Shown here: positions 764 through 63,100 of the stretch, one piece after another
Layout: each line of letters opens with the position of its first letter
Numbering within the stretch: position 1 is the first letter of the stretch
Assembly (NCBI GenBank): GCA_965238225.1
Contig: OZ250183.1
Location: 1,024,001 to 1,088,000 of the forward strand
DNA: 64,000 nucleotides
Direction of reading: 5' to 3'
DNA from: Gammaproteobacteria bacterium
GTDB taxonomy: Bacteria > Pseudomonadota > Gammaproteobacteria > Eutrophobiales > Eutrophobiaceae
Program-made: the position numbers and the translations under genes
The notes under the pieces: model-generated
Database searches by the model: none
What the model was told of the DNA's origin: nothing
Seen by the model: only the letters and a program-made list of their open reading frames with translations

Positions 764-1501
764 CTAACAGTTATGAAAAGGCGGTTTGTTTTCGATATAG
801 GCCATCCACATACAATCAAGCATAGCCCATAGAATATCCAGTTTAAATTGTAAAATATCCAGCATCTTTCTCTGTTCTTCTCTAGTCTTATAATAATCAA
901 GTGTGATATCCAGCCCATGCTGTACATCACGTCTTGCTTCATTGAGTCGTTTGCGAAAATAGTTATAGCCTTTCTCATCAATCCATGGATAAACCTGCGG
1001 CCAGTTATCCAGTCTTTTTTGGTGAATTTTTGGTGCGAAAAGTTCAGTGAGTGATGAACTTGCCGCCTCTTGCCATGGGGCGTTACGTGCAAAATTTAGA
1101 TAGGCATCAACCGCAAAACGAACGCCGGGCAAAACATGTTCGCCAGAAAGTATTTCTTCGCGTGTTAGGCCGACTGCTTCGGCCAATTGCAGCCAAGCTT
1201 CAATGCCGCCATCTTCACCTTCTTCGCCATCATGATCAATAATCCTTTGTACCCATTGGCGCCTGATGGCTCTATCGGGACAGTTCGCCATAATCGCTGC
1301 ATCTTTAACGGGGATCGTCGTTTGATAATAAAAGCGATTAGCCACCCAGCCTTGTATGGCTCGTTTGTCCAGTTTTCCAGTATCCATTAAAATATGAAAT
1401 TCATGATAGATATGATAATACCTTTCTTTATCACGAATCTTTTGTTCAAATTTATCTCGCGTCCACGGTATTTGTTTGGGAATATTTTTTTTGGCACTCA
1501 T
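764..1501 (-). CDS. pqqC: Pyrroloquinoline-quinone synthase PqqC
   Basis: [43 protein letters not shown] motifs. Confidence 0.97.
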
Positions 1502-1520
1502 GTATTCATTCCCTCATGAT

Positions 1521-2435: not shown

Positions 2436-2736
2436 AAGTATTTATTTTTTTATGATTAAGATCATTAAGCAGTGCGAGCGAATATCATGCCATGTTACTT
2501 AAAGCAAAGTTTTATTATCGAATTATTTTAAATTTATATATAAAACAATAATATAGTAAATATATAGAATGTTAATTCTAGGAATATTGACACTTTTGAG
2601 CAAAAATGAATACTGAACTTGGACTGATACCCCCCCTGTTATTGGCTGAAATAAACCAATTAACAATCAGGCCAATGATAGCCATTTATCAATTGCAGTC
2701 ATTTGCAGGTAAAGTCCCAATGTATAAGGAAAAATC

Positions 2737-4290: not shown

Positions 4291-4300
4291 CACAATCATC

Positions 4301-4885
4301 ATGATAAATGAAACAATCGTGACAACATTAAACGAAGATGGATCAGTTCATATTGCGCCTATGGGGGTAAGGCGTGAAGATGATTTATTTGTTATAGCGC
4401 CATTTAAACCATCAGCAACCTTGGAAAATCTTGAGCGCAGCGGCGAGGCCGTTATTAATATGACAGATGATATGCGTATTTTCGCCGGTTGTCTTACGGG
4501 TCATTATGAATGGCCGACAATAGACACTGTAGTTATCAATGGAAAAAGATTGGAAGTCGCCTTGAGTCATGCTGAGATTAAAGTAATACGTCAAAAAGGC
4601 GATGACCTTCGTCCTCGGTTTTATTGTTCTGAAAGATACATACAGACGCATAGACCATTTATGGGCTTAAATCGTGCTAAAGCAGCAATACTGGAAGCGG
4701 CGGTTCTTGTCAGTCGGTTGCATATGCTCACCGCTGATAAAATTGATAATGAGCTTCAGTATTTGCAAATTGCCGTTGATAAAACTGCCAGTGAAGATGA
4801 TCTGGAGGCATGGAGTTGGCTCATGAATCATATTGAGATATTTAGAAAACAAAACCTAAATAAAAAACAAGGACGTTCAACATGA
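4301..4885 (+). CDS. DUF447 family protein (Orf19-type, C1/H4MPT cluster)
   Basis: MINETIVTT...HIAPMG, PFKPSATLENL, GLNRAKAAILEAAVLVSRL, IAVDKTA motifs. Confidence 0.85.
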   Translation: MINETIVTTLNEDGSVHIAPMGVRREDDLFVIAPFKPSATLENLERSGEAVINMTDDMRIFAGCLTGHYEWPTIDTVVINGKRLEVALSHAEIKVIRQKGDDLRPRFYCSERYIQTHRPFMGLNRAKAAILEAAVLVSRLHMLTADKIDNELQYLQIAVDKTASEDDLEAWSWLMNHIEIFRKQNLNKKQGRST

Positions 4886-5604
4886 CAGGCATGTTGGCCA
4901 GTATTTCGAATCTGGAAGAGGCGAAAATTGTACTACAGGAAAATGTCGATATTATTGATTTAAAAGACCCTCTGCAAGGTGCCTTGGGCGCAGTCACAAC
5001 TGCAACCGCACGGGAAGTTGTAGCGTTTGTCTCAGGTCGATGTTTTGTCAGCGCCACCATTGGCGATTTGCCTATGCAGGCAACAGCGATTAAGAAGGCT
5101 ATTGTCAGGATGGCATCAACAGGTGTTGATATCATAAAGGTCGGTGTATTTGATGCCTTGACCGACAAAGTGATTGCCACTTTAAAAGAACAAGCGATTA
5201 AAGGCGCAAAAGACACGAATGGCAAACAATTTACCATCGTTATGGTGTTTTTTGTTGATAAAGATTTAAACTTAAAGAAGATAATTGATTTGGCGAAGGT
5301 CGGAGTCAGGGGAGTTATGTTAGACACTGCTGAAAAAATGCAAGGAAATTTAAGAATGCATATGCAAGATAAAGAATTACGAGCCTTTGTAAAACAGGCA
5401 AAATCATATGGTTTGCTGGCAGGGCTTGCAGGTTCTTTAAAAGCTTGTGATATTGCGCCTTTGCTCAAAGTAGAGCCGGATTATCTTGGTTTTCGTGGCG
5501 CGCTGTGTCGGGATAATTTGCGCACTGAAACTTTGAACGTTGCTGCTGTTAGAAAAATTCGTTTTTTACTTTCAAAAGCGCAAAATAGCCGTCTACCTAT
5601 GTAA
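4882..5604 (+). CDS. mfnB: (5-formylfuran-3-yl)methyl phosphate synthase (methanofuran biosynthesis, Orf22 type)
   Basis: MLASI..LEEA, DIIDLKDP..GALGA, VSATIGD, GVMLDTAEK, GLAGSL, PDYLGFRGALC. Confidence 0.88.
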   Translation: MTGMLASISNLEEAKIVLQENVDIIDLKDPLQGALGAVTTATAREVVAFVSGRCFVSATIGDLPMQATAIKKAIVRMASTGVDIIKVGVFDALTDKVIATLKEQAIKGAKDTNGKQFTIVMVFFVDKDLNLKKIIDLAKVGVRGVMLDTAEKMQGNLRMHMQDKELRAFVKQAKSYGLLAGLAGSLKACDIAPLLKVEPDYLGFRGALCRDNLRTETLNVAAVRKIRFLLSKAQNSRLPM

Positions 5605-5635
5605 AATTAGATTCATAATCAGGAGGTATTGCGAA

Positions 5636-6028
5636 ATGGCACAGTGGAGAAAAAAAGAAAAAGACGCAACTTACAGCGATGCAGAGATTAAATCACGTTT
5701 GGAAAAAGAATTGCCTGCATGGTATTACGAAGACGGATGGATCCGTAGGAAATATAATACCAGTGGTTGGAAGAGCACTTTAATGGTCATCAACACGGTG
5801 GGTCATTTATCAGAGGCAGCTTGGCATCATCCAGATATCGCAGCCTCTTATGCGTTTGTCATAGTGAAACTTATGAATCACGCTGCCAAAGGTGTCACCA
5901 ACAAAGATTTTGAGTTAGCAAAAAAAATTGAAGAAGTCATCATGTGGCAACCGGGTGCTGATGAAGATAATGCGCTTACGGGCACGCCGGATGATCCTAG
6001 ATTTAAATATATTAAATACAATAAATAA
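5636..6028 (+). CDS. Pterin-4a-carbinolamine dehydratase (4a-hydroxytetrahydrobiopterin dehydratase)
   Basis: EAAWHHPDI and H..KGVT.KDFELA motifs; AGGAGG RBS precedes ATG at 5636. Confidence 0.88.
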   Translation: MAQWRKKEKDATYSDAEIKSRLEKELPAWYYEDGWIRRKYNTSGWKSTLMVINTVGHLSEAAWHHPDIAASYAFVIVKLMNHAAKGVTNKDFELAKKIEEVIMWQPGADEDNALTGTPDDPRFKYIKYNK

Positions 6029-6303: not shown

Positions 6304-9300
6304 ATGGTAATGTTGAACAGTAAGCCTATGCAGTTGATGAGTAGATTAATTATGAGTAAATTAATTATTGGTAAATTAAGCGCCAGCATAAACGATAGCC
6401 CAAGTAGTACGTTTGGTCTTGGCAGCACAATCAACTTAACAAAACGCTTGGCACTGGTCTTTTTTCTTGTAGGGCTTTTTGCACAGGCGGCACATGCTGT
6501 CACGGTGGATAAACTAACGACCAAGGATACCACACCAACAATCACCGGCACACTTGCGACAGGTGAAACACTAAACTCTGTAACGGTAAACGGTGTTGCT
6601 ACCAATACACCTGTTGTTGATACCAGCGGAACCCCAATCACATGGCTTGCGGAAGTAGATGTTCTTAATGTACTTAATGACGGCACTTACCAAGTCATTG
6701 CAACAGTCACTGATACAGGAGGCAGTGTACTAACAGACACCTCAACACTTACAGTAGACAACATAGCTTCTATTGCCACATTTACTTATTATATAAAATT
6801 GCCAGACGGCAGCAATAATTTTCTAGATACTACGCTAACTGCAGTAAAAGAAAACGATAGGGTTACCATCTTTGCCAACTTTGATAAAGACATAGCAGCT
6901 ACGCCTCCCATGAAAATCACAGGCACTGGTGTACATACTATCTCTGCTACCAACATGACAAGATTTGATGCAGATACCTATATCTATACTTGGACAGTAG
7001 GCACAGGTGATGGCATACAAACATTTACCTTAAGTAACGGCACAGACTTAGCAGGCAACGAAGTCACTCCCACACCGACCTCCGGTGCCGTAGTTAAAGT
7101 AGATAACACAACCCCTATTATTGTACTTACGATCGATAGCACATCACTTCTAACCAACAGCCAGAGACCTACAATCACAGGTAGGATCAGTGAGCTACTT
7201 GCTGATGGCATAGGAATTCCTTCAGTTGAGAGGCTTTCTGTAACAGTAGGCGGTACTCTTACCAGTGGAGCTGATTTTAGTAGAGGTGATGGTTTATGGA
7301 GAGCGAGAGTAAGCGCAGGCACTGCACTTCTCACTGATGGCACCTATGAAGTCGTTGCAATAGTTATTGATGCAGCAGGCAACACCAGTTCCACAGCAAC
7401 TGCTACCTTAACCGTAGACAGCACCGCACCAGTATTGGTATCCTATTCATTCGGAGATGGCAGGCAATATCTACCTAGCGAAACAGCAACAAATGTTGCC
7501 ACCAATGCCAATATTGTCTTGACCTTTGATGAGGCAGTCATGAAAGTGGCGGGTGGCGGTCTCACAATTCGATCAAGCGTATCAACAGCTACACCTACAG
7601 AAGAAATTATTCTCAGCGCAGACCCACGCATCACAGTGGCTGGCAATACAGTCACCATCAATCCAAGCATCAACTTTGCTGCGGGTGACAGTGTTGAATT
7701 AGCTAATATCGGAACAGTAGTCTCTGACCTTGCTGGCAATTCCGCCGGCGGCAGCATAATTGCCTTTCTTGCATCAGCCACAGCATCTACCCCCACCGAT
7801 CAAGACACAGTCTTTGCCAGCGCAGTCAGTGGCATGGCTAACGCAGCGATTACTGTTGTAGGTTCTGGCAATGCTGATGATAGCATCTGGTTTGCACCAC
7901 AATCTACGCAAAACTTTACAGAAAGCGTAACCATCACCCGTGCTGCGGGTAATGCTACTTCTATTTACGCCCCACAAGCCAGTGGCACTTATAGATTATT
8001 TGTACAAGACCGCGCTGGTAATGTTTCCAGCCCATCAAATGCTGTCTTGACTGTCACCGCTGATACCACCAGTCCGAGCTTAACTACCTACGCATTTGGT
8101 AGAGACAATACAAGCTATGCACTTACAGACAGTGCCACAGAGGTGCCAGCCAATGTTGATATTATCCTGAATTTCAGTGAGCGAGTCAGCGCCGGCACAG
8201 GTACCATCACCTTAACCCCTACAGGCGGCACCGCCATAGCACTTGATGTGACAGGCGCACAAGTCACAGCCAATGATACTGATGCTGTCACCATCAACCC
8301 GTCCAACAATCTTGATCTGAGTACAGAATACACAGTCAATATCCCAGCAGGCGCATTTGTAGACCGCGCAAGCCGTGATGCGACGCAAGCTACTTTTAGC
8401 TTTAGCGTATCAGCAACACCGCCCACCCCTGACCCTGCAACAGTTAAAGATGTTGTGTCTGGTGTTAACATGCAAGCTGATATAGCAGTCGACTGGACTA
8501 AGACCTCAGTAACCACCATTACCAACCGCATGAACTGGTTACGCCGCCACAAAGGCAGCAACAACCTGTCTCATCAAGGCATAACCTTAAACTTTGCACA
8601 TCCGACACTGGACGCACTCTTTAAGGCAGAATATAAGGCCAATAATCCCAAAGAAAATAGCCTTGTGAGCCAAGCACGCCTTGCCAACATGGCAAGAACA
8701 CTGGCCAATAATACCAAGCATAACGCCGACCACAGCACGTCTGTGTTTGCTGCGCTCAAACAAGAGCTTAGCGACCGTGCCGCCAATGAATTTGCCAAAC
8801 TGGCACACAATACTTTAGACAATACTTTAGGCCATCTGACTGCCCTAAACCCCTTAAGCGGTAACAGCATCAGTGATACTTGGGCAATCTGGACTGCCGG
8901 CAATATCACCCTAGGTGATTATGATGCAACCACCACCACATCTGCACAGGACAGCTTCTCACAAAACATCTCCTTAGGCGTAGACAGATATACAGCCAAT
9001 GACAAACAGCTTTTAGGTGTTGCCGTAAGCTTAGGCAGGGGTGATGTTGAGATTGGCAATAACGACACAACACTGAATTCAGATGCCATAAGCTTCGCGG
9101 TCTACACTGCCCTAGACTTGTACAAATACACTGTCTTTGAAGGTATGACTGCCATTGAAGGTATGATAGGTGTAGGCGGCATTACTGTAGATACAAAACG
9201 CCGTGGTGATGACAATATATTACTCACAGGCAGCCGTGACATAAGGCAAATATTTGCATCCTTGACCTTCAGAGGTAAATTCCAACAAAAGGATATAAAC

Positions 9301-9855: not shown

Positions 9856-12800
9856 ATGGTAATATTGAACAGTAAGCCTATGCAGTTAATGAGTAGATTA
9901 ATTATGAGTAGATTAATTATGAGTAGATTAATTATGAGTAGATTAATTATGAGTAGATTAAGCACCACCACAAACGATAGCCCAAGCAGTATGTTTGACC
10001 TTGACAGCATGATAAGCCTAACAAAACGCTTGGCACTGACCTTTTTTCTTGCAGGGCTTTTTGCACAGACATCATATGCTCTCACGGTTGATGCACAAAC
10101 AACCAACGATACAACGCCAACAATCACCGGCACACTTGCGACAAATGAGACACTAAGCTCTGTAACAGTAAACGGTGTTGCTACCAATACACCTGTTGTT
10201 GATACCAGCGTAACCCCAACTACATGGCGTGCGGAAGTAGCGGTTTTTAATGCACTTAATGAAGGCACTTACGCAGTCGTTGCAATAGCCGCACTTTCAG
10301 GACTTGGAGGAGGCACCGTCACAAACACTGCCAGCATCACCATAGACAACACAGCCCCAAGCAATCAAAACACAGTCTTTAATTCTAATATCACTGTTGC
10401 CGGCAGTGCGACAGTCACCATCATAAGCTCAGGCGTAGCCAGTAACAGTGTTTGGTTTGCCCCAGCCACCACTACAAACTTTAGTGCAAGTAGCACCATC
10501 ACCCGCGCTGCAAGCGGCACTGCCACTTCGATTACAGCACCTGCAACAGATGGCACCTATAAATTATTTATACAAGACAGCGCAGGTAATGTTTCTAGCC
10601 CATCAACGGCCACCTTAACCGTAGTAGCAGACAACACAGCCCCAACAGCCACACTCGCCTATACCTATGGTACGGGTACTAATACTGCCACACGCGTAAG
10701 CCAAGGCACCAGCATTACCATCACTGCTGACTTTAATGAGGACATAGCATTATTCCCTATCCCGCAGATTACAGGCACTGGTGCACATACTGTCTCTGCC
10801 GCCAACATGACAAGGGTTGATGCAACAAGCTATACCTATGTTTGGACAGTCGGTACTGGTGATGGCACACAAACATTCACCCTAAGCGACGGCACAGACT
10901 TAGCAGGCAATACCATCACCGCGACCCCTGTCTCAGGTGCCAGCATCATCGTAGACAACACAGCCCCCACAGCCACCCTTGCTTATACCTATGGCACAAG
11001 CACTAATACTGCCACGCGCGTAAGACAAGGCACCAGCATCACCATCACTGCTGCCTTTTCTGAGTCTACGAAAGGTAACCCCGCCATGCGCATTGCCGGC
11101 ACTGGCGCACATACTGTCTCTGCCGCCACCATGACAAGGGTCAATGCAACAACCTACACCTATGCTTGGACAGTCGGTACTGGCGATGGCACACAAACAT
11201 TCACTTTAAGCCAAGGGCAAGACTTAACAGGCAATACAGTCACCGCAACCCCCACATCTGGTGCCAGCATCACCGTAGACAACTTAAGCCCCAGCAATCA
11301 AAACACAGTCTTTAATGCTACCAGCAGGGCTGTTGCCGGCAGTGCGACAGTCCCCATCATAAGCTCAGGCGTAGCCAGTAACAGCGTTTGGTTTGCCCCA
11401 ACAGGCACCACAAACTTTGTTGCAGGCAACACCATCACCCGCGCCACAGGCACTGCCACTTCAATTGCAGCCCCTGCAACAGCAGGCGACTATAAATTAT
11501 TTGTACAAGACAGCGCAGGTAATGTCTCTAGCCCATCAACCGCGAGCTTAAGCGTAGACACACAAGCGCCCACCAATCAAAACACAGTCTTTGCTACCAG
11601 CAGGGCTGTTGCCGGCAGTGCGACAGTCGCCATCGAAAGCTCGGGCGTAGCCAGTAACAGCGTTTGGTTTGCCCCAGCAGGCACCACAAACTTTGTCATA
11701 GGCAACACCATCACCCGTGCCACAGGCACCGCCACTTCAATTACAGCCCCCACAACCACAGGCGACTATAAATTATTTATACAAGACAGCGTAGGCAATG
11801 TCTCTAGCCCATCAACCGCCACCTTAAGCGTAGACAATACAGCCCCCACAGCCTACCTGCGCTATTACTTGAAACAAACTGGCGGTAATATCATTGTCAG
11901 TGTCGTAAAAGCAGGGGATGCCATAATTGTTAATGCCAAATTTGACGAGCCCATAGCAGATAGCCCTGTCATGCAAATCACAGGCACTGGTGTAGAGAGC
12001 ATTGCTGCCGCCAACATGACAAAACACAATGCAACAACCTATAACTATGACTGGACAGTAGGCACAGGTGATGGTGCACAAAGCTTCACCCTAAGCACAG
12101 GCACAGACTTAGCAGGCAACACCATCACCGCGACCCCTACCGCAGGGACCAGCATTACCGTAGACAACACAGCGCCTGTACCCACAGTTGACGCACTAGC
12201 CACCAATGACACCACCCCAACCATCACCGGCACAACAGACACAGGCGCAGGGCTTGGCACAGGAGAAAGCCTTTCTGTGACGCTAAACTCTATTACCTAC
12301 ACACCTACTGTTGCTACAGATGGCACTTGGTCTTTTACAGTGGCAAGTGCCAATGCACTTGCTGATGGCAGCTATGAGGTTAGTGCAACATTCACCGATG
12401 CAACCGGCAATACCAGCACAGACACCAGCAGCAACGAACTCACCATAGACAGCACCGCACCAGTATTGGTCTCCTATGCCATCGGAGATGGCAGGCAATA
12501 TCTACTTAGCGAGGTAGCAACAAATGTTGCCACCAATGCCAATATTGTCTTGACCTTTAATGAGGCAGTCATGAAAGGGTCAGTGGTGGGTGCTGGTCTC
12601 ATACTTCGATCAGACGTATCAAACACAGGCGCACAACTTGTAACTACTATACCTGAGGGTGTCATCACCGGCACAGACCCACGCATCACAGTGGCTGGCA
12701 ATACGGTCACCATCAATCCAAGCCTCAACTTTATTGTGGGTAAACATACTTCATTAGCTATCGGATTAGGACTCTTCTCCGACCTTGCCGGCAACGCTTT

Positions 12801-22919: not shown

Positions 22920-24197
22920 TTACGCAGCAGCAGCACCGTCTTGCCAAATAGTATCCACTAAGTTTGGAGATGCTTCGGTAAATCCTTGCGCTATAACACT
23001 GCCTGCACCAAGCGGTACATCATAAGCTGCCATGGCTTGAACCAATATGCCGACCCCTTCTCTTGATAATGTTAAGAGTGAGTCAGGCGCTCCGCCTACT
23101 CCGTCTATATTGGTTTCGATACTGTCTAGTTTGAAAACATCATTTGCGTACCAGCGCTTGACCGTCACTTGATCATCGGTGCCAACAATGGTGATCAGTA
23201 AATCTGTATTATTTTTGCTAAACCATAGGTCTTCTATTGATACATTGTCATATTTCAATTTATCTTCACTGGTTGAGCCTGCATCATAATTATTAATGAT
23301 TGCACTATCGTCACCTCGGGAGAACAGATAAGTATCGTTACCCCTGCCTCCAGACAAGGTATCCGTACCAGCACCACCGCTTAGGGTGTCATTGCCGTTA
23401 CCGCCATTCAAGGTATCGTTACCAGCACCTCCACTCAAGGTGTCATCATCGTTACCGCCATATAGGGTATCGTTGCCGTCACCGCCATTTAAGATATCGT
23501 TGCCGTTACCGCCATACAGGATATCGTTGCCGTCACCGCCATTCAAGGTATCATTGCCGTTTTGTCCATAAAGGGTATCGTCACCCGCACCACCGCTTAG
23601 GGTGTCATCATCGTTACCGCCATACAGGGTATCGTTACCCGTACCGCCATTTAAGATATCGTTGCCGTTACCGCCATACAGGATATCGTTGCCGTCATCG
23701 CCATTTAAGGTGTCAGCGCCGTTTTGTCCATACAGCTTATCGTCACCCGCGCCGCCATTTAAGGTGTCATCGTGGTTACCGCCATACAGCTTACTATCGT
23801 TACCCGCACCGCCATGAAGCGTATCATTGTCGTTACCGCCATAAAGCTCATCGTTACCGTCATCGCCATGAAGCGTATCATCGCCGTTTTGTCCATACAG
23901 CTTATCGTTGCCCGTATCGCCTTCAAGCGTATCGTCGCCGTTACCGCCATAAAGGGTATCGTTACCGTCACCTAAGCCTACTAAGCCATTGTTGCCGTCA
24001 CCTCCCTGCAAGTTATCGTTACCATCACCGCCATACAGGGTATCGTCACCGCCATTTCCCACCAATAAATCTGCACCTTGACGCCCATACAAGCCATCGT
24101 TACCCGTACCGCCACTTAAGATATCACCTGCATCACTTCCATACACATCCTCGCCATCATCGTGGGCGGCTTGAAAAACTGCTTGTTGGTGTGCCAT
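22920..24197 (-). CDS. RTX calcium-binding repeat protein 1 (probable type I secretion substrate)
   Basis: About 30 GGxGxDxLx nonapeptides plus C-terminal [26 protein letters not shown] domain; GGAGG RBS before ATG 24197. Confidence 0.88.
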
Positions 24198-24544
24198 CAA
24201 TAAATCCTCCAATATTATTACGTTTTAATTATTACGTTTTAAAATAAATTTTTGTTAAGCTTGCTATCTTTTTTAATACTTAATTCTTTCAAATCTTAAT
24301 CTTAAAGTAAGTCGATAATCCAGTGAGTTGATAATCTTAAAGTCTGCATCTTTGGTTGCCATTTAAAGCATTTTTAAGAAAAAATCCCGCAATGTATAAG
24401 GCGGAAGATACCCTAAAAAATCATTATATGAAAGTAGAAAATACACCTAAAACCCCTTAAGCTTTGACGTATGATCAAAGATTGGTGCAAAAGTTTCACA
24501 CTGATTTCGGTTATGCTAAACCTGAATTATACCCGTGGTGCTTA

Positions 24545-24619
24545 GTAATGAAATGGTAATGAAATGGTAATGAAATGGTAATGAAATGGTAATGAAATGG
24601 TAATGAAATGGTAATGAAA
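24545..24619. repeat. 11-bp tandem repeat GTAATGAAATG x6.8 upstream of RTX1
   Basis: Read directly; only ~1.7 degenerate units at the paralogous site (about 26320-26338). Confidence 0.95.
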
Positions 24620-24804: not shown

Positions 24805-26169
24805 TTACGCAGCAGCAGCACCGTCTTGCCAAGTATTATCCACTAAGTTTGGAGATGCTTCAGTAAATCCTTGCGCTATAACACTGCCTGCACCAAGCGG
24901 TACATCATAAGTTGCCATGGCTTGAACCAATGTGTCGACCCCGTCTCTTGATAATGATAAGAGTAAGTCAGGCGCTCCGCCTACTCCGTCTATATTGGTT
25001 TCGATACTGTCTAGCTTGAGAACATCATCTGAGTACCAGCGCTTGACCGTCACTTGATCATCGGTGCCAACAATGGTGATCAGTAAATCTGTATTATTTT
25101 TGCTAAACCATAAGTCTCGTGCGTCTACAGCCTGAAATAGTAATTTATCTTCACTCGCTGGGCCTATATCATAATTATTAATGATTGCACTATCGTCACC
25201 TCGGGAGAACAGATAAGTATCGTTACCCCTGCCTCCAGACAAAGTATCGTTACCAGCACCACCGCTTAGGGTGTCATTGCCGTTTTGTCCATAAAGGGTA
25301 TCGTTACCAGCACCACCGCTTAGGGTGTCATTGTCGTTACCGCCATACAGGGTATCGTTACCCGTACCGCCATTTAAGGTATCGTTGCCGTTACCGCCAT
25401 ACAGCTTATCGTTGCCGTTACCTCCATTCAAGGTATCGTTACCGTTTTGTCCATACAGCTTATCGTCACCCGCATTGCCGCTTAGGGTGTCATCGTCATT
25501 GCCGCCATACAGCTTATCGTTGCCGTTACCTCCGTTTAAGATATCGTTACCGTTACCGCCATAAAGCTCATCGTTGCCGCTATCTCCATTCAAGGTATCA
25601 TCGCCGTTTTGTCCATACAGCTTGTCGTCACCCACGCCGCCTGCAAGCACATCATTGCCGTTGCCTCCATACAGTTTGTCGTTACCGGTACCGCCTTTAA
25701 GCGCATCATCACCGTTATCTCCGCTTAAGGTATCATTGCCTGTCCAGCCGCTTAGGGTATCGTCACCGTCACCTCCGATTAAATAATCGTTACCGTTACC
25801 TCCCTCTAGGGTATCGCCACCCGTACCGCCGTCTAAAATGTCGTGACCGTTACCGCCATACAGCTTATCGTCACCGTTACCTCCATTTAAGGTATTGTTA
25901 CCCTTCCAGCCATACAGCTTATCGTTACCGTCACCTCCATTTAAGGTATCGTCACCACCGCCTCCCCACAACCTATCGTTACCGTCATCTCCATTTAAGG
26001 TATTGTTACCGTTAACTCCATTTAAGTAATCGTCACCGTCACCTCCATTTAAATAATCGTTACCGTTACCTCCGATTAAATAATCGTTACCGCCAAGTCC
26101 ATACAAGGACTCGCCGTTATTATTGGCAACGAGAAAGTCAAATCCATTACTGCCTATTTGTGTAGTCAT
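24805..26169 (-). CDS. RTX calcium-binding repeat protein 2 (paralog of RTX1)
   Basis: About 34 nonapeptides plus near-identical C-terminal domain ending WQDGAAAA; GGAGG RBS. Confidence 0.88.
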
Positions 26170-26473
26170 CAATTAAATCCTCCAGTTATTATATATTTGT
26201 GTATTAGCTATAAGAAACGTACAAATCCCCTAACCATTAGACGTTATGACCAAAGATTGGTGCAAAAGTTCCATACTAGTTTCGGTTATGCTAAACCTGA
26301 ATTATACCCATGGTGCTTAGCAATGAAATGGTAATAAAAAAATTAAAGTTGCTCATTCAAATTCTCTTAGGGAGTATGTATACAGCTGAAAGCGATGGCA
26401 ACAACTATTAACAAACTTAAGAAGTGTGGTCGTCTAAATGCACTGCGGGTAACCTTAACTAAGACTTAAGTCT

Positions 26474-29625: not shown

Positions 29626-29787
29626 CATTATGTTTAGAACTTGAAATTATCGATAAATAACTTTAGATATTAGATTTATCTATTTGAATTTAATAATATT
29701 ATTACATTATGTTTAGAACTTGAAATTATCGATAAATAACTTTAGATATTAGATTTATCTATTTGAATTTAATAATATTATTACATT
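29626..29787. repeat. 79-bp AT-rich perfect tandem duplication
   Basis: CATTATGTTTAGAAC... starts at 29626 and again at 29705. Confidence 0.9.
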
Positions 29788-54938: not shown

Positions 54939-56372
54939 TTAGGAATCATCTTTCAATTTTAAGGCAAGAAAAATAGGCGTTCCTCTTCTGTGAATTAAGA
55001 TAGGGACTGACTTGTCTTTAGATAAATGATTAACCAGACTGTTAAAATGTTTCGCATTTTTCACCTTGACGTTATTAATCAGCAGTATAATGTCACCATT
55101 TCGCACGCCTGCTTTGTAGGCAGATCCTAGTGAAATATGGCTGACAATTACGCCATGATTTTTGATTTCTAATTTTTTTCGTTGATCCTTTGTTAAATCT
55201 TCAACGAGCACATTTAATGGATTTTGTTTTTTACTTTTATGTTTATCTGATGAAGATAATCTAATATTCTCATCAGTAGGTAATTCTGCAATTTTAATCT
55301 TAATATTTCTTCGTTTTCTATTGCGAATAATTGTAACTGGCACAGTTTTACCTGCTTTTATACTACCCACCATTGGCGGAAGGTCGGATGAGGTATTTAT
55401 TTTACCCCCATTAAAATTTACAATAATATCACCAACTAGCATTTTCGATTTTTCAGCGGGGCTGTCTTCTAAAATTTCTGCAACAAGCGCACCATGCGGC
55501 TTTTTCATACCAAAAGATTCAGCTAATTCTCTAGTCACATCCTGTATTAATACACCCAACCAGCCACGTGAAACATAACCTTGTTCTCTTAATTGTTTAT
55601 AGATATCTTTAACAACCTCAATAGGTATCGCAAAAGATATGCCTATATAAGTATTTGTACGAGCAGTATAAATATGGGAATTAACGCCTATGACCTCACC
55701 TTGCAAATTAAATAATGGTCCGCCAGAATTACCAGGATTGATTGCAACGTCTGTTTGGATAAACGGCACATAATTTTCACTTGGCAAATTTCGACCTATT
55801 GCACTTACGATTCCTTGTGTAACAGAGTGATCAAATCCAAAAGGAGAGCCGATAGCCAACACCCATTCACCGACTTTTAACGCAGAAGAATCGCCCAGCT
55901 TTAAAACTGGTAATTTACCAGCTTCAATTTTTAATACAGCAATATCACTGCGTACATCAGTGCCGATAACTTCAGCTATGAATTCTCTCCTGTCATTAAG
56001 GCGCACGATGATTTCATCTGCATCTTTCACAAGGTGGTTATTGGTGATGATGTAACCATCCCTAGATACGATAAAACCAGAACCAAGCGAAGTTCTCTGC
56101 TGATTAGGAGCTGTGCCATCAGGGACTTCTCTAAAAAATTTATTGAATAAATCATAGAATGGGCTATTTTTCGGAATGTCAGGCATATTATATCTTTGAA
56201 TCGACTTATTCTTTTTTAAGGTTGTGCTAATATTGACGACCGCAGCAGAGTTTTTTTCTGCCAGTTCAGAAAAATCTGGTAACGAATATACCTGTGAAGA
56301 TTGGGTAGATAAAACAAAGAAAACAAAAATAAGCCTTACAACGTTTTTAGGAAATAGTATTTTGTGTTCCAT
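54939..56372 (-). CDS. DegP/MucD-family periplasmic serine protease with two PDZ domains
   Basis: LGSGF, TNNHLV, INPGNSGGPL, PDZ domains; in rpoE operon. Confidence 0.93.
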   Translation of the reverse strand: MEHKILFPKNVVRLIFVFFVLSTQSSQVYSLPDFSELAEKNSAAVVNISTTLKKNKSIQRYNMPDIPKNSPFYDLFNKFFREVPDGTAPNQQRTSLGSGFIVSRDGYIITNNHLVKDADEIIVRLNDRREFIAEVIGTDVRSDIAVLKIEAGKLPVLKLGDSSALKVGEWVLAIGSPFGFDHSVTQGIVSAIGRNLPSENYVPFIQTDVAINPGNSGGPLFNLQGEVIGVNSHIYTARTNTYIGISFAIPIEVVKDIYKQLREQGYVSRGWLGVLIQDVTRELAESFGMKKPHGALVAEILEDSPAEKSKMLVGDIIVNFNGGKINTSSDLPPMVGSIKAGKTVPVTIIRNRKRRNIKIKIAELPTDENIRLSSSDKHKSKKQNPLNVLVEDLTKDQRKKLEIKNHGVIVSHISLGSAYKAGVRNGDIILLINNVKVKNAKHFNSLVNHLSKDKSVPILIHRRGTPIFLALKLKDDS

Positions 56373-56438
56373 AGGCGCTCCATAAAAAAATTTTAGATTA
56401 TTAATGGTACTGATTTTAAATAAAGGAAAATAATAAAA

Positions 56439-57461
56439 TTATTTGTTTGAAACGATAGATTTGGCAAGTAATTTCACAGTATCTTTAGGAACTTCGCCAA
56501 TGGCAGTGATAAGATGGCCATTGCTTATCGTCGAAAATGTGTTCACGCCACCTATACTCGAGAAACCAGTCACAACATCCTCAGACTTATCAAGTTTTTC
56601 GATAAATACTGAAATCATCGCCATATCATCTGAATATATCAGATGCTCAATTGGTGTTTCATTTTTACCAGAACTCTGTTTTTCTTTACTACTCATGGTA
56701 AAGCCATCAGGTGCCCATGTTGCTTTCCATGAGGCATCTCCCTCATGCATTAGAAAATTTTTCGAGGAGTTATCATGCCAAGTATATTCTGTATATCCTG
56801 CACCTGATATTTCAGGCTTTAATAGTTCATCAGAAATTTCTTCAACAATTTTCAATTCTGCAAAAAATAATTTTTCAAGCGCGATACCTTCCCTGTTTTT
56901 TAGTTCAGATTTCAGTAATAACTTTGATTTCAGATCAATCCACAACTGATATCCATAACGGTAATCATCTTTGGGCAAAATATCTACTACCAATGCAGAG
57001 CGGTTAGCAATACGGTCTTGCCCAGCAATTGAAATAGTGTAGTATCCAGAAACCTTGCTCATTTGTTCAGATAATTGACTGATATTAAATTGTCTTGGAC
57101 GACTTTTTTCTACCATAACGGATTCATCATCGGGAAAAATGTAAGTCACAGAGTTTTTATTACGCAAAACTTCATAAGCAAAGCCTGTTAATGAAACAAT
57201 CCTTTCTTGTATTTCGTCTTCATCAACTTTATGGATAATACGCATAGCATCTACTTTTCCCTGATGTTGATAAATAAGAATACCTTCATAGCTCAATTTG
57301 TGATTCGCCTCAGACATTTGTCTAATGAGTTGTTTTACAGGCAATACTTCATCAACGGCAAAAAGCGATTTTGAGGCCAGTATTAAAAACGAGAATAGAA
57401 AACACGACAACAAGATTTTATCAGGTTTTTTTATAAAAAAATCAGCAAGAAATTTTTGCAT
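56439..57461 (-). CDS. rseB: Anti-sigma E regulator RseB/MucB
   Basis: LSYEG, DRIANR, PKDDYRYGYQLWID, HLIYSDDMA.ISVF, GEVP. Confidence 0.92.
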   Translation of the reverse strand: MQKFLADFFIKKPDKILLSCFLFSFLILASKSLFAVDEVLPVKQLIRQMSEANHKLSYEGILIYQHQGKVDAMRIIHKVDEDEIQERIVSLTGFAYEVLRNKNSVTYIFPDDESVMVEKSRPRQFNISQLSEQMSKVSGYYTISIAGQDRIANRSALVVDILPKDDYRYGYQLWIDLKSKLLLKSELKNREGIALEKLFFAELKIVEEISDELLKPEISGAGYTEYTWHDNSSKNFLMHEGDASWKATWAPDGFTMSSKEKQSSGKNETPIEHLIYSDDMAMISVFIEKLDKSEDVVTGFSSIGGVNTFSTISNGHLITAIGEVPKDTVKLLAKSIVSNK

Positions 57462-57599
57462 GTAAATTTAAGAATCTCACAATAATTGATTAAAACGATA
57501 TTACAGGTAGCGCATATCTTCCCGTTCCACACTCCATTATATCCAACTTCATCAAATTTTTAAGATATATCGTGCGCAAAATTTCTAGAATAAACCCCA

Positions 57600-58187
57600 T
57601 TATCGGCTTGAATCTAAGCCATTAGCAACCATTCTCACGTGCGGTAGCATTCCATTTATGTTTGTATTTGAGCGATACTCGCTATAGTTTATCAAGTATC
57701 GATTTAGGCGCAGATCAAAGTTTCTGGTTTGAGAAAGCTCAACCCTTCCCTTTTTCTGAGCCACTAACTGCCAGTTCGCTATTGAAGAAACCGAAGATAA
57801 CGGGCTTGTAGTAATACTGGGTTGTGCAACAACAGATTGTTCTGTCCTTGGAATTTGTTTGTCTTGTTGAATGTTAAAAATAACGGCCACTGTAACCGAA
57901 GCGGCAATGGCAAATCCCATGACTGGCTTGACAAAATATGAAAATTTCTTTCTTGGAGCAAGTACTGTCGGCTCTAAAGCAATTGCCTGAGTCACATTAT
58001 CTGAAATATCCTTTAGGCGTTTAGGCAAACAACCGCGTAATGAATCACCGATTATATGGTATCGCTCCCAGGTTTTTTTGGCCTTATCGTCTTTCAATAA
58101 ACTATCGACCGCAGACGATATATCATGAGTCAGTTCATTATCTACTAGAGCTGACAATTGCTCACGCTTTTGTTCGTTAGATTTCAT
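57600..58187 (-). CDS. rseA: Anti-sigma E factor RseA/MucA (intact)
   Basis: EQLSALVDNE, WERYHIIGDSLR, TM with AIAASV, periplasmic RYL..Y. Confidence 0.93.
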   Translation of the reverse strand: MKSNEQKREQLSALVDNELTHDISSAVDSLLKDDKAKKTWERYHIIGDSLRGCLPKRLKDISDNVTQAIALEPTVLAPRKKFSYFVKPVMGFAIAASVTVAVIFNIQQDKQIPRTEQSVVAQPSITTSPLSSVSSIANWQLVAQKKGRVELSQTRNFDLRLNRYLINYSEYRSNTNINGMLPHVRMVANGLDSSR

Positions 58188-58250
58188 TTTATTTTGTAGT
58201 GTTGCTCAGTATATTAATTAATTTAGAATTTTAACGTTCAATTAATAGTT

Positions 58251-58457
58251 TTAGTTTTTGTCTATCACTAAGCGTGCTCTAAATATACGCTTAGGCAAAC
58301 AACCGCGTAATGAATCACCGATTATATGGTATCGCTCCCAGGTTTTTTTGGCCTTATCGTCTTTCAATAAACTATCGACCGCAGACGATATATCATGAGT
58401 CAGTTCATTATCTACTAGAGCTGACAATTGCTCACGCTTTTGTTCGTTAGATTTCAT
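58251..58457 (-). CDS. Truncated RseA N-terminal domain copy with RpoE-derived tail (mini-RseA A)
   Basis: First 57 aa identical to RseA, then IFRARLVIDKN; retains native upstream region. Confidence 0.6.
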   Translation of the reverse strand: MKSNEQKREQLSALVDNELTHDISSAVDSLLKDDKAKKTWERYHIIGDSLRGCLPKRIFRARLVIDKN

Positions 58458-58520
58458 TTTATTTTTTAGTGTTGCTCAGTATATTAATTAATTTAGAATT
58501 TTAATGTTCAATTAATGGTT

Positions 58521-58727
58521 TTAGTTTTTGTCTATCACTAAGCGTGCTCTAAATATACGCTTAGGCAAACAACCGCGTAATGAATCACCGATTATATGGT
58601 ATCGCTCCCAGGTTTTTTTGGCCTTATCGTCTTTCAATAAACTATCGACCGCAGACGATATATCATGAGTCAGTTCATTATCTACTAGAGCTGACAATTG
58701 CTCACGCTTTTGTTCGTTAGATTTCAT
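58521..58727 (-). CDS. Truncated RseA N-terminal domain copy with RpoE-derived tail (mini-RseA B)
   Basis: Identical protein to 58251-58457; directly follows rpoE. Confidence 0.6.
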   Translation of the reverse strand: MKSNEQKREQLSALVDNELTHDISSAVDSLLKDDKAKKTWERYHIIGDSLRGCLPKRIFRARLVIDKN

Positions 58728-58770
58728 TTTATTTTTTAGTGTTGCTCAGTATATTAATTAATTTAGAATT

Positions 58771-59349
58771 TTAATGTTCAATTAATGGTTTTAGTTTTTT
58801 GTCTATCGCTGCGCGCGCTCTAAATATGCGCGATCTTACAGTGCCAATCGGACAGTCCATAGCAGTCGCAATATCTTCATAATTCATCTTTTCTATCTCT
58901 CGTAAGATAATTGCAGTCTTCAGATCTTTAGGTAACGCCTCAATCGATTTGAAGATAGTTTCCTGCACCTCGTCCCTTAATAACAAACGTTCCGGGGTTT
59001 CTTGGGATATTAGAGTGTGATCACCATCTATTTGTTCCATACTATCGATATTATATGCTGATTCGAGGGGGGTTCTGGACTTTGCCGCCAAGTAATTTTT
59101 GGCTGTATTGACCGCAATACGGTACATCCAAGTGTAAAAAGCACTATCACCTCGAAAATTCGACAGCGCTGTATAGGCCTTAATAAAGGCTTCCTGAGCG
59201 ATATCCTGCGCATCACTAGGATTATGGACAAATCTTGAGACTAGATTGATAATGCGCTGCTGGTATTTTAATACCAGAAGATCAAAGGCCTGCTTATCAC
59301 CACTTTGCACTCTTTCCACCAGCTGTTTGTCAGTGATGCTTTCGTTCAT
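58771..59349 (-). CDS. rpoE: ECF sigma factor sigma-E (RpoE/AlgU)
   Basis: DKQLVERVQ.GDKQAFDLLVLKYQ, FRGDSAFYTWMYRIAVNTAKN, CPIGTVRSRIFRAR. Confidence 0.97.
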   Translation of the reverse strand: MNESITDKQLVERVQSGDKQAFDLLVLKYQQRIINLVSRFVHNPSDAQDIAQEAFIKAYTALSNFRGDSAFYTWMYRIAVNTAKNYLAAKSRTPLESAYNIDSMEQIDGDHTLISQETPERLLLRDEVQETIFKSIEALPKDLKTAIILREIEKMNYEDIATAMDCPIGTVRSRIFRARAAIDKKLKPLIEH

Positions 59350-59459
59350 TATTAAGGGAGCCCCCGTCTAGGCAAATACTCTGCTATAATTCTTACTGCA
59401 TTAAGATCCTTGAAATTACGGCTTCTATATTGACCGAAATAAATGGCAGGAACCTGAAA

Positions 59460-59486
59460 CCAGAGCTACCTTGAAATTAGAGTTCA
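59460..59486 (-). promoter_or_regulatory. Possible sigmaE-type autoregulatory promoter of rpoE
   Basis: Minus strand GAACT-16 nt-TCTGG, an imperfect match to GAACTT/TCTGA. Confidence 0.3.
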
Positions 59487-59559
59487 GAAATAAATTTTTC
59501 AGCAATAGCTTACATTCATCCTCGGGCATATTACCTTAAGTTAGATGACGCGCCAATAC

Positions 59560-60141
59560 CAACATGCAATGTGTTTATCTGGATATTAGCCATCAACCGA
59601 AAGATTTTATTATTTCTCACTTTCCAAACATTTATCAAAAATGCCTGTGTTTTGGGTTTGATTTAGCCAAACAAGCTGTTCCAGTGGTTCCTGCGGCACA
59701 TTACACCTGCGGTGGTGTGCTTGTCGATATGTATGGCCGAACAGATATGTCATGCTTGTATGCGGTTGGTGAAGTGACGAACTCAGGATTGCACGGCACT
59801 AATCGTATGGCCAGCAATTCGCTGCTTGAATGTATTGTGTTTGCACATTCTGCTTATAAAGACATACTAAGTCCAGGTTAGCAAAAGCGCATGAGTCTTG
59901 CCAATTACCTGCTTGGAACGAAAGCCAAGTCACGGATTCTGATGAAGAAGTCGTGGTTTCTCATAATTGGGACGAGATCCGTCGCTTCATGTGGGATTAC
60001 GTGGGTATCGTCAGAATAACGAAGCGATTGCGCAAAAAAAGCCGAGGTTTGCACTATTCGCTTGATTATCTTCATCTCAACGATAGTAAGACACCTGCAA
60101 ATACAATACTTACCCCTGCAAAAAATAATGAAAATGGTTGA
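59560..60141 (+). pseudogene. nadB: L-aspartate oxidase remnant (C-terminal fragments only)
   Basis: [36 protein letters not shown], then separate fragment [18 protein letters not shown]...SRGLHY; N-terminal FAD region missing; canonical position divergent from rpoE. Confidence 0.9.
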
Positions 60142-60303
60142 TACTGTAAGCTTAACAACAAGGCTTAATTATTATTAATTTAATTAATAAACAATTATAT
60201 ATATAATACACTTAATGTTTATTATAGTTTAATCAATCATAAAGCATTTTAACAATAGTCGCACAAGTATTCTATTAGCGCCAAGACTCAACCTTGGTTA
60301 AAC

Positions 60304-63100
<2,797 letters not shown>

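Follow-up and report, generated by a model that had tools for sequence, protein, structure and literature searches.

A 270-nt tandem amplification across the rpoE/rseA boundary encodes two small membrane-free RseA fragments, candidates for a signal-blind sigma-E brake

The window, the whole 64,000-nt stretch of DNA that we analysed, carries a sigma-E operon on its reverse strand. Gene rpoE (58771..59349) is intact and encodes 192 aa ending in …IFRARAAIDKKLKPLIEH, with Pfam domains Sigma70_r2 and r4_2 and a match to the NCBIfam RpoE equivalog TIGR02939 (285 bits versus a cut-off of 236). Full-length rseA (57600..58187) encodes 195 aa with an N-terminal anti-sigma domain (Pfam RseA_N), a membrane block and a C-terminal block, the latter two conserved in relatives, and rseB (56439..57461) encodes 340 aa with the N and C domains of Pfam MucB_RseB. 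Next in the same orientation is a gene for a Do-family (DegP/MucD-like) serine protease (54939..56372; NCBIfam TIGR02037, 485.6 bits versus a cut-off of 416). The 90% cluster of this DegP-like protein holds a 41-aa member (P0251) without similarity to it, which we regard as a clustering oddity. The neighbouring nadB is a pseudogene remnant. Between rpoE and full-length rseA lie two further genes on the reverse strand, mini-rseA 1 (58521..58727) and mini-rseA 2 (58251..58457), and these are the subject of the present analysis.

Both mini genes lie within a repeat array at the rpoE/rseA boundary. A repeat search of the window revealed three head-to-tail units of 270 or 271 nt at 58021–58831 (spacing 270 and 270), and Tandem Repeats Finder described the same interval as 3.0 copies of period 270 with 98% matches and a score of 1557. 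Repeat identity over 811 nt cannot be chance. On the reverse strand, unit C (58561..58831, 271 nt) comprises the native rpoE end, a 43-nt spacer and rseA codons 1–57. Unit A (58021..58290, 270 nt) contains a decayed tail, a variant spacer (58196 G, 58235 C, 58247 A) and rseA codons 1–57 that run into full-length rseA. Unit B (58291..58560, 270 nt) is a hybrid with a decayed A-like tail and a C-like spacer. In a gapped comparison, the only differences between units A and B were at 58196, 58235 and 58247 (58466, 58505 and 58517 in unit B), exactly the spacer differences claimed in the first-pass annotation, and the differences between units B and C were confined to the tail. The 167 nt derived from rseA were identical in all three units, in agreement with the earlier statement that the RseA part is essentially unchanged; none of the nine differences between units A and C fell inside this part (P = 1.8e-04 if uniform over sites, 9e-05 over G/C sites). 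The array therefore has three distinguishable unit types in head-to-tail order, one junction type, and a hybrid unit with a single marker switch, as in tandem amplification. We concluded that the array is real and lineage-specific, a 270-nt segment spanning the rpoE/rseA boundary having been amplified in tandem. Inserted, the term used earlier for the mini genes, is the wrong word: a segment running from the rpoE 3' end through the spacer to rseA codon 57 was duplicated in tandem, and one unequal crossover came later.

The two mini ORFs encode the same 68-aa sequence, RseA residues 1–57 and then IFRARLVIDKN (junction peptide …CLPKRIFRARLVIDKN). In mini-rseA 1 the RseA part comes from unit C and the decayed RpoE-derived tail from unit B, and in mini-rseA 2 they come from units B and A, respectively; the last 10–11 rpoE codons are the source of the tail. 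Repeat search, Tandem Repeats Finder and ORF list thus bore out the proposed derivation of two 68-aa RseA(1–57)/RpoE-tail ORFs from a 270-bp triplication. The same translation start region is present in the units, so that each mini gene keeps the native rseA upstream region as had been claimed. There is no clear Shine-Dalgarno sequence upstream of the mini genes; relatives have GAGTGA there.

Residues 8–56 of mini-RseA matched Pfam RseA_N (PF03872; E = 1.1e-13, 51.9 bits versus a cut-off of 24), a match that spans only positions 3–49 of the 87 in the profile, and no second Pfam domain was found in the protein. The native fourth anti-sigma helix (DISDNVTQAI) is missing, and IFRARLVIDKN stands in its place after residue 57; the caution that this helix had been replaced holds in the ORF sequence. 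The AF2 monomer (mean pLDDT 77) placed helices at residues 4–15, 23–31, 34–50 and 56–67, the last of which is of foreign origin and modelled with low confidence (block pLDDT 63–68). D16 never varies across 122 aligned sequences and R42 is present in at least 90% of them; mini-RseA has both residues. The protein ends before the GFAIAASV membrane block and the C-terminal block, both of which occur in full-length RseA and 33 relatives. Of the features that define the family, it has the position downstream of rpoE in an rpoE-rseA-rseB operon and lacks the single membrane segment and the periplasmic C-terminal domain where RseB binds and DegS cuts. A fold search with the mini-RseA model returned RseA, MucA and RsiW as best matches, with none of 14 at E ≤ 0.001, in a search weakened by the small size of the protein. 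Soluble class I anti-sigma factors, such as RsrA and ChrR, combine an anti-sigma domain with a cytoplasmic sensing element of their own (a zinc/thiol site or a sensor domain). Such an element was not found in mini-RseA, whose sole cysteine is C53 and which has no H/C-x-x-C motif.

A second, diverged assembly carries the same fusion. Its contig of 69,112 bp encodes a 75-aa protein (P0002) consisting of RseA 1–57 followed by IFRARAAIDKKLKPLIER; the junction is that of the window, and the tail is intact and identical to the end of this sister strain's own RpoE. Across 10 other proteins the two strains differ at 60 of 3955 residues, or ~1.5% protein divergence. In the sister strain the derived residue H8 is common to the mini and full-length RseA copies, and in general the copies within one strain are closer to each other than are orthologous copies between strains. 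The search of relatives for the same fusion, as suggested in the first-pass annotation, was thus positive in this second assembly and negative elsewhere. Although rpoE directly precedes rseA in 80/80 related loci, none of these 80 related species loci had a second RseA-N match, and the sigma-tail motif occurred in 0/148 representative matches and 0/120 RseA homologues. Twenty-five of the 148 representative matches were 120 aa or shorter; the 19 inspected look like contig-end or frameshifted fragments, and the sigma tail was in none of them. Apart from its own cluster, a near-length search with mini-RseA recovered nothing but a 104-aa fragment on a 446-bp contig. None of the papers searched joined rseA, tandem duplication and anti-sigma.

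The tails themselves record how the array changed. Compared with the native rpoE end, both junction tails have five common substitutions (native positions 58808, 58811, 58812, 58816 and 58828), all from G/C to A/T, and have lost one base in the T-run at 58795–58800, as had been reported from the first reading. Each junction also contains a perfect 8-bp inverted repeat, CTAAGCGT / ACGCTTAG, with an 11-nt loop, located at 58538..58564 for the B/C junction (RNA fold −14.7 kcal/mol, z −2.1) and at 58268..58294 for the A/B junction (the same repeat; z −1.8). This repeat is absent from the native rpoE end: four of the five substitutions fall in its two arms, raising complementarity from 6/8 to 8/8. 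When sets of five substitutions were simulated, a perfect repeat of at least 8 bp arose in 23 of 5000 random sets and in 12 of 5000 sets limited to G/C-to-A/T changes. Clustered changes that raise the complementarity of an imperfect repeat are characteristic of quasi-palindrome template switching, and two sources (PMC7202029; bioRxiv 10.1101/2023.08.09.552703) attribute both template switching at quasi-palindromes and −1 frameshifting in homonucleotide runs to errors of recombination or replication. The likeness to the system in PMC7202029 lies in a substitution cluster that perfects an imperfect inverted repeat; here the mutations are deduced from a comparison of natural sequences rather than seen in a reporter, and one arm change must precede the templated event. 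As judged from sequence, the cluster appears to bear the marks of template switching rather than selection. Selection for a stabler hairpin was not supported, as a hypothetical unmutated junction already folds at −13.1 kcal/mol versus −14.7 kcal/mol, and 1344 of 5000 random sets (124 of 5000 for G/C-to-A/T changes only) fold as well.

These observations suggest the following history. An illegitimate duplication, flanked on each side by a CGC codon, would have fused codon 57 of rseA in frame with codon 175 of rpoE, yielding a 75-aa chimera of the form still present in the sister strain. In the lineage of the window, a template switch may then have perfected the quasi-palindrome, with two further G/C-to-A/T changes in the tail, and a −1 slip in an A-run would have shifted the stop codon to give 68 aa. 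Lastly, one unequal crossover between two units, at 58518 to 58536, probably generated hybrid unit B. At 58235 unit A has CGT (Arg) where the native rpoE of the window reads CAT (His). Since Arg is also the last residue of the sister RpoE, the duplication is older than the CGT-to-CAT change. The head-to-tail units, single junction type, hybrid unit and within-strain likeness are those of tandem gene amplification with concerted evolution, with the difference that the unit here is sub-genic (270 nt) and by chance in frame, such that every unit gained brings a whole small gene, start region included. Because concerted evolution is evident from H8 in both sister copies and from hybrid unit B, the shared identity of the RseA part cannot be counted as a sign that the mini protein is under selection. 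The shared tail substitutions and the unchanged RseA part, which had been offered as hints of selection, fit template switching and concerted evolution, respectively. With its in-frame junction, concerted evolution, template-switch mutation cluster and crossover hybrid, the locus is an unusually clean record of sub-genic tandem duplication making a new small gene.

Signals of separate expression were sought around the array. No promoter-like or terminator-like site was called inside 58018–58831, and we therefore rejected a promoter or terminator belonging to the repeat unit; in 56300–59700 there were 10 promoter-like sites versus 11.5 expected and 3 terminator-like sites versus 2.3 expected. 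The sigma-E promoter motif is GAACTT, 14–18 nt, TCNNA. The window contained two matches to this motif versus 2.87 expected by chance, and neither is near the locus. Because the units have no promoter or terminator of their own and each has the rseA translation start region, the mini genes are probably co-transcribed with rpoE-rseA-rseB and translated.

We used a complex model to compare docking of mini-RseA and RpoE with that of controls. The score was 0.78 versus 0.00 for the best of three controls, although like complexes (1OR7, 6IN7, 8Z6G) have been solved and the result may be memory; the mark for this score is reached by 116 of 157 solved complexes and by 2 of 215 mismatched pairs. Model runs agreed in at least 66% of contacts with partner pLDDT of at least 74, and the lowest-error modelled contacts set mini-RseA 9–16 and 39–49 against RpoE 172–187. 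The structure prediction suggested in the first-pass annotation thus supported docking, with the reservation just given, and the model shows likeness to solved complexes while being silent on affinity. The best fold match of the mini-RseA model was 1or7_C (TM 0.55–0.57), the E. coli RseA cytoplasmic domain in its complex with sigma-E. The N-terminal domains are homologous (phmmer E = 2.1e-07 over mini-RseA residues 7–57), and the modelled docking likewise sets mini-RseA against both sigma regions 2 and 4. Unlike E. coli RseA, mini-RseA stops after helix 3 and continues into a foreign RpoE helix, and it lacks a membrane segment, a periplasmic part for RseB binding and a protease-made C-terminus.

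RseA/MucA-type control is textbook regulated intramembrane proteolysis, in which destruction on signal is what makes the inhibitor useful. Flynn and colleagues reportedly found in 2004 that the new C-terminus of RseA(1–108) is a degradation tag, making the fragment transient. RseA(1–108), which is released by RseP and destroyed by ClpXP, resembles mini-RseA in being a membrane-free N-terminal fragment, bound there to sigma-E according to PMC8595263; mini-RseA instead ends in ...VIDKN (...PLIER in the sister strain) and is without the adaptor-binding region. C-terminally truncated MucA alleles of P. aeruginosa (mucA22; engineered 1–50, 1–62 and 1–75) are same-family fragments that keep partial sigma inhibition. 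According to bioRxiv 10.1101/2020.08.17.253617, MucA 1–62 and 1–75 are sufficient for viability, 1–50 is sufficient and poorly tolerated, and 1–40 is insufficient, and neither D15A nor R42A is tolerated. Those MucA alleles stand in place of the full-length gene and lead to de-repression (mucoidy), whereas the mini-RseA copies are chimeric extras that arose by tandem duplication beside an intact rseA.

We propose that mini-RseA may be a soluble four-helix protein whose first three helices are those of the RseA anti-sigma domain and whose fourth, at the helix 4 site, is foreign. It would probably still dock on sigma-E, mainly at region 4. With no membrane anchor, periplasmic sensor or RseP-made C-terminus for the DegS/RseP/ClpXP cascade to act upon, it would be a signal-blind and probably weaker extra inhibitor. 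Such an inhibitor would raise the threshold of the envelope-stress response in a dose set by repeat copy number. Helices 1–3, Asp16/Arg42, the complex model, the MucA fragments and the uninterrupted operon make the soluble, degron-free and signal-blind inhibitor of the first-pass annotation plausible; its wording of a rewired brake we retain only as a proposal. Tandem amplification with the history given above and a soluble signal-blind sigma-E brake, taken as one account, seems to us evenly poised between right and wrong. If it is right, extra membrane-free sigma-binding copies beside an intact system would show a threshold shift without touching the sensor, and naturally evolved minimal anti-sigma fragments of 68 and 75 aa would become testable.

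The signal-blind brake is plausible, and a neutral by-product is nearly as likely. On the neutral explanation, toward which we lean somewhat less than halfway, the array is real, young and harmless, and the mini ORFs have no selected role, their peptides being rapidly degraded or too weak as binders; the rseA part would be intact only through unequal crossover or gene conversion overwriting it from the selected full-length copy. The observed concerted evolution agrees with this, and the tail changes are only G/C-to-A/T plus a −1 frameshift, with four of the five substitutions explained by a quasi-palindrome correction that is rare in the simulations and is among the errors known from the sources cited above. 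Tail decay of this kind, as in unselected sequence, counts against the brake, as do the loss of helix 4 with all that follows it, the upstream region without a clear Shine-Dalgarno sequence, and the adjoining nadB remnant, which suggests that the genome tolerates decay. Moreover, the strains are so close that survival of a 207-nt ORF needs no selection. Against neutrality, a translation start region and operon position like those of authentic rseA make synthesis likely, the complex model would support binding, and MucA fragments of similar length retain activity in vivo in the study cited above. The rseA part also escaped all nine A–C differences, although conversion limited to that part would give the same result, and the speed of RpoE evolution (below) suggests changed sigma-E biology. 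If the neutral explanation is right, the locus would be a warning against taking a conserved ORF plus shared substitutions for selection.

Improbable in our judgement is an effect at the level of the operon or RNA, whereby extra cistrons, junction hairpins and a longer stop-to-start distance alter RseA and RseB output relative to RpoE, in either direction. Each junction hairpin folds at −14.7 kcal/mol and the native rpoE end has none, and by ORF coordinates rseA now starts 63 nt after the preceding stop codon, versus 43 nt in the original rpoE-rseA spacer; according to PMC8595263, E. coli RseA synthesis is tightly tuned via its 5' UTR and a promoter inside rpoE. However, hairpin z-scores are modest (7 of 200 and 13 of 200 shuffles fold as well at the two junctions), the hypothetical unmutated junction already folds at −13.1 kcal/mol, no U-tract follows the hairpin, no terminator-like site was called, and a known RNA family was rejected with 0 Rfam matches at E up to 1 in 55500–60500. 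An assembly artefact, in which one or two units are real and a third reflects mis-assembly, is highly improbable and was rejected: copy number is classically prone to error in short, nearly identical tandem repeats, but the units are mutually distinguishable, a hybrid unit would not arise from erroneous collapse or expansion, the window's contig is 1,722,049 bp long, and the earlier case against a pure artefact is strengthened by an independent diverged assembly with the same RseA(1–57)|IFRAR... junction ORF.

We also compared RpoE itself between the two strains. A bolder version of the brake proposal, which we consider unlikely, would make the array a recombinational rheostat in which each unequal crossover adds or removes one complete gene for a signal-blind, degron-free inhibitor, letting lineages adjust the set-point of the envelope stress response through copy number; the fast RpoE evolution in both carrier strains would then reflect escape from, or accommodation to, permanent soluble inhibitors. 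Co-evolution at the interface was rejected, because 2 of the 12 RpoE strain differences fell among the 53 modelled interface residues versus 3.3 expected, showing no enrichment. The fast change of RpoE may be read from sequence as consistent with weakened sigma-E constraint. RpoE was the fastest evolving of the 11 proteins compared, with 12 differences in 192 residues versus 60 in 3955 for the 10 others (Fisher p = 9e-05), and its changes include the otherwise invariant sites G154, S156 and E180.

A repeat search found three head-to-tail copies of a 270-nt unit at 58021–58831, with spacings of 270 and 270 nt, and Tandem Repeats Finder returned a period of 270, 3.0 copies, 98% matches and a score of 1557. 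The genes here all lie on the minus strand: rpoE (58771–59349; 192 aa, Pfam Sigma-70 regions 2 and 4, NCBIfam equivalog at 285 bits against a cut-off of 236), mini-rseA 1 (58521–58727), mini-rseA 2 (58251–58457), full-length rseA (57600–58187; 195 aa, Pfam RseA_N) and rseB (56439–57461; 340 aa, Pfam MucB_RseB N and C domains). The two mini genes are identical 68-aa ORFs, each joining RseA residues 1–57 to IFRARLVIDKN, a tail derived from RpoE; the native RpoE C-terminus ends ...IFRARAAIDKKLKPLIEH. Together with the ORF listing, the repeat analyses bear out the 270-bp triplication and the two RseA 1–57 fusions described in the first-pass annotation. A Do-family protease gene follows rseB, and then lepA, lepB, rnc, era, recO and pdxJ (NCBIfam). 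At 56373–56438 rseC is absent, the protease gene starting 66 nt past rseB; the same was seen in the relative L002.

A gapped comparison was made of unit A (58021–58290), which runs into full-length rseA, unit B (58291–58560) and unit C (58561–58831, 271 nt), which holds the native rpoE end. Units A and B differed only at 58196, 58235 and 58247, the very spacer positions noticed on first reading. Differences between B and C were confined to the rpoE-derived end: five substitutions, at native positions 58808, 58811, 58812, 58816 and 58828, all five from native G/C to A/T in the copies, and a run at 58795–58800 that was one base shorter in B. The tail substitutions and 1-bp deletion reported as common to both copies were thus recovered, and the RseA part, described as unchanged, was identical over 167 nt in A, B and C.

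An exact look-up showed that the mini protein's 90% cluster had a second member, P0002, a 75-aa mini-RseA from a sister strain represented by a second assembly. It was reported from a 69,112-bp contig, as were the sister RseA, RseB, LigA and RpoE. P0002 consists of RseA 1–57 followed by IFRARAAIDKKLKPLIER, with the junction as in the window and the tail undecayed. Because the sister RpoE (P0130) ends ...KPLIER, the sister mini tail is that strain's own RpoE end. In the window the protein was shortened from 75 to 68 aa by a −1 slip. The two strains are close yet distinct, differing at 60 of 3955 aligned residues in ten proteins (RpoE excluded); the exact RecO and PdxJ sequences were listed on two contigs.

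In gene orientation the junction reads ...CCTAA/GCGT..., and the corresponding places are AAA-CGC in rseA and TCG-CGC in rpoE. We infer an illegitimate join at the CGC codon common to both genes, with the frame kept by chance. Position 58235 yields CGT (Arg) in unit A and CAT (His) in the native gene and unit B; since the sister RpoE also has Arg, the duplication appears older than the Arg-to-His substitution. Unit B combines the tail of A with the spacer of C, which points to one unequal crossover in an ancestor that had only units A and C, and the exchange point would be between 58518 and 58536. The order would be duplication, then the substitution at 58235, then the crossover that formed B.

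At both junctions lies an inverted repeat of 8 perfectly matched bp, CTAAGCGT / ACGCTTAG, enclosing a loop of 11 nt (58268–58275 with 58287–58294, and 58538–58545 with 58557–58564), and one arm crosses the junction itself. Four of the five tail substitutions fall in the arms: two replace GC by bases complementary to the rseA-derived TT, and the remaining two, one per arm, are complementary to each other. Together the four raise complementarity from 6/8 to 8/8. In simulations that started from a hypothetical unmutated junction and used sets of five substitutions, a perfect repeat of at least 8 appeared in 23 of 5000 sets drawn at random and, when only G/C-to-A/T changes were allowed, in 12 of 5000. 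We read the tail mutations as largely one mechanical event, a probable quasi-palindrome correction by template switching, a mechanism described in PMC7202029. As typical errors of recombination-associated synthesis, bioRxiv 10.1101/2023.08.09.552703 names mutations at quasi-palindromes together with −1 frameshifts in runs of one nucleotide, and the window has both.

RseA relatives shared at most 64% identity and all came from uncultured Gammaproteobacteria; the species representatives searched did not include the genome of the window. At 80 of 80 related loci rpoE was directly followed by a single rseA, and a second RseA-N match occurred at none of the 80. When proteins of near length were searched with the mini protein, its own cluster and one 104-aa fragment on a 446-bp contig came up, and nothing else. 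HMMER, run exhaustively over 1.84 billion representatives, gave 202 matches, of which the best 150 were listed and 148 screened. Among these 148 there were 25 of at most 120 aa, and the 19 inspected resemble end-of-contig or frameshifted fragments; the sigma-tail motif occurred in 0 of the 148 and in 0 of 120 RseA homologues. The fusion that the first-pass annotation had suggested seeking in relatives was thus recovered from the sister strain (P0002) but from none of the 80 loci or of the 148 screened among the best 150 matches. The locus is a tandem array carrying a fragment homologous to RseA, present in two strains and restricted to one lineage.

Pfam RseA_N matched residues 8–56 of the 68-aa ORF (E 1.1e-13; profile positions 3–49 of 87), and residues 7–57 aligned with the 1OR7 RseA chain (E 2.1e-07) and, weakly, with chains of MucA. 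The fragment belongs to the RseA/MucA family in part: the domain matches, but helix 4 is gone, and so are the membrane segment and the domain in the periplasm. The AF2 model (122-row alignment, mean pLDDT 77) had helices at 4–15, 23–31, 34–50 and 56–67, the foreign tail being modelled as helix at lower confidence (pLDDT 63–68). Its best fold matches were 1or7_C, 6in7_A, 8z6g and RsiW (TM 0.55–0.63), none of them reaching E 0.001. Structure prediction with RpoE, proposed in the earlier reading as a check, returned the verdict 'supports binding', with a complex score of 0.78 (runs 0.83, 0.75, 0.78) against 0.00 for the best of three controls; because like complexes have been solved, this score attests likeness to them, not binding of this copy. 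Among solved complexes 116 of 157 attained that mark, as did 2 of 215 mismatched pairs. Contact agreement between runs was at least 66%, and partner pLDDT at least 74. The tightest modelled contacts joined mini residues 9–16 and 39–49 to RpoE 172–187, and further ones involved RpoE 4–52 and mini residues as far as 63. In a study of the orthologous MucA system (bioRxiv 10.1101/2020.08.17.253617), MucA 1–75 and 1–62 were enough for viability, 1–50 served poorly and 1–40 failed, and D15A and R42A were not tolerated. Mini-RseA keeps the aligned residues, Asp16 and Arg42, and residue 57 lies between the marginal and sufficient lengths of MucA.

The 43-nt spacer upstream of the mini genes is the authentic rseA spacer, bar 58196, nine bases before the start. 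The array spacer lacks the GAGTGA block that precedes the relatives' start codon, so initiation may be weak, alike for all three genes. No promoter-like or terminator-like site was called inside the array, and there was no Rfam match. In E. coli rseA has a second promoter inside rpoE, over 230 nt upstream (PMC8595263); a promoter equally far away here would fall outside the 270-nt unit and would drive mini1, mini2, rseA and rseB together. Upstream of rpoE (~59490–59530), alignment with eight relatives showed that the window deviates in two short, otherwise nearly invariant blocks (GGAAAC... and ...TTAGAA in the relatives), which may, speculatively, mark a changed promoter element.

We give about an even chance to the proposal that the mini proteins act as sigma-E inhibitors. 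That is, they would be produced from the operon transcript, would dock on sigma-E via helices 1–3, and their dose would vary with repeat copy number; having no membrane anchor, sensor part or protease-made degron, they would be extra, signal-blind and probably weaker inhibitors. Mini-RseA would work like truncated MucA alleles and the transient RseA(1–108) intermediate, but unlike these it is chimeric, comes in tandem copies and exists alongside an intact gene. No paper that brings rseA and anti-sigma together with tandem duplication came up in our literature search.

The leading alternative, with a substantial chance that stays short of even, is a neutral by-product that concerted evolution maintains. 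Units A and C differed at nine positions, none in the 167-nt rseA part. The chance of 0 of 9 there is 1.8e-04 if changes are uniform over sites and 9e-05 over G/C sites, or 1.2e-03 (all sites) and 9e-04 (G/C sites) with the templated changes taken as one event, and purifying selection on the mini protein could explain it. In the sister strain, His8 occurs in mini and full RseA alike, where at least 90% of aligned sequences have Arg; this derived state in both copies indicates that the change was copied between units. With the hybrid unit B, it indicates that the array evolves in concert, so that the intact rseA part can be explained without selection on the mini gene. An effect by way of operon spacing or RNA structure is improbable: the junction hairpin gains little stability over the hypothetical original (−14.7 vs −13.1 kcal/mol) and its z-scores are modest (−1.8 and −2.1; native rpoE end +0.6), values that do not support selection for hairpin structure. 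An assembly artefact is very improbable and was rejected, because a diverged strain would not repeat a mis-assembly and the three units in the window can be told apart; the P0002 junction strengthens the case first made against it.

RpoE differed between the two strains at 12 of 192 residues, the most among 11 proteins compared (ZipA 11/255, RseA 7/195, RseB 6/340; RpoE against the pooled 60/3955 of the ten others, Fisher p 9e-05). Among relatives the reverse holds, RpoE being the slowest-evolving operon protein (93–99% identical, vs RseB 78–93% and RseA 68–93%). Derived states were spread over both strains. Of the 12 differences, six are at positions with at least 90% conservation among 118 relatives, and both strains share departures at six further such sites (R60T, P63S, R93T, I128V, L155M, E180A), P63 and E180 being without variation in those relatives; G154, the same residue in all 118, has K in one strain and E in the other. 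The modelled interface showed no enrichment for the differences (2 of 12 vs 3.3 expected). Relaxed constraint on sigma-E would fit this pattern better than interface co-evolution. It might be expected if sigma-E were chronically held down, and equally if the response were becoming dispensable.

Beyond rpoE, a nadB remnant lies at 59545–60141 (plus strand). Its start region is conserved with relatives, and it retains the last quarter of the FAD-binding domain (59564–59881) and, in another frame, a C-terminal domain piece (59953–60141), nothing more; in L002 an intact nadB (544 aa) occupies this divergent position. At 22920–24212 and 24805–26172 (minus strand) are two proteins made mostly of 27- and 54-nt (9-residue) calcium-binding RTX-type repeats, scoring 230 and 256 bits with NCBIfam 'RTX family hemolysin', far under its cut-off of 1000. 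A perfect 11-nt repeat (24545–24619, 6.8 copies), of a unit length that is not a multiple of three, lies ~330 nt upstream of where the RTX-repeat ORF ending at 24212 starts, and could be a slippage switch. Tandem 15-nt repeats starting ATG (6337–6379, 2.9 copies; 9889–9961, 4.9 copies, perfect) lie ~33 nt inside the 5' ends of two very large ORFs of 1139 and 1642 aa, the latter with an adhesin-type repeat and with internal 276- and 324-nt repeats at 10629–11836. An AT-rich intergenic region holds a perfect 79-nt direct repeat (29626–29787, 2.1 copies). At 764–6028, pqqB and pqqC (PQQ synthesis) adjoin matches to dihydropteroate-synthase-like, (5-formylfuran-3-yl)methyl phosphate synthase-like and pterin dehydratase models, which hints at a methylotroph-type cofactor set.
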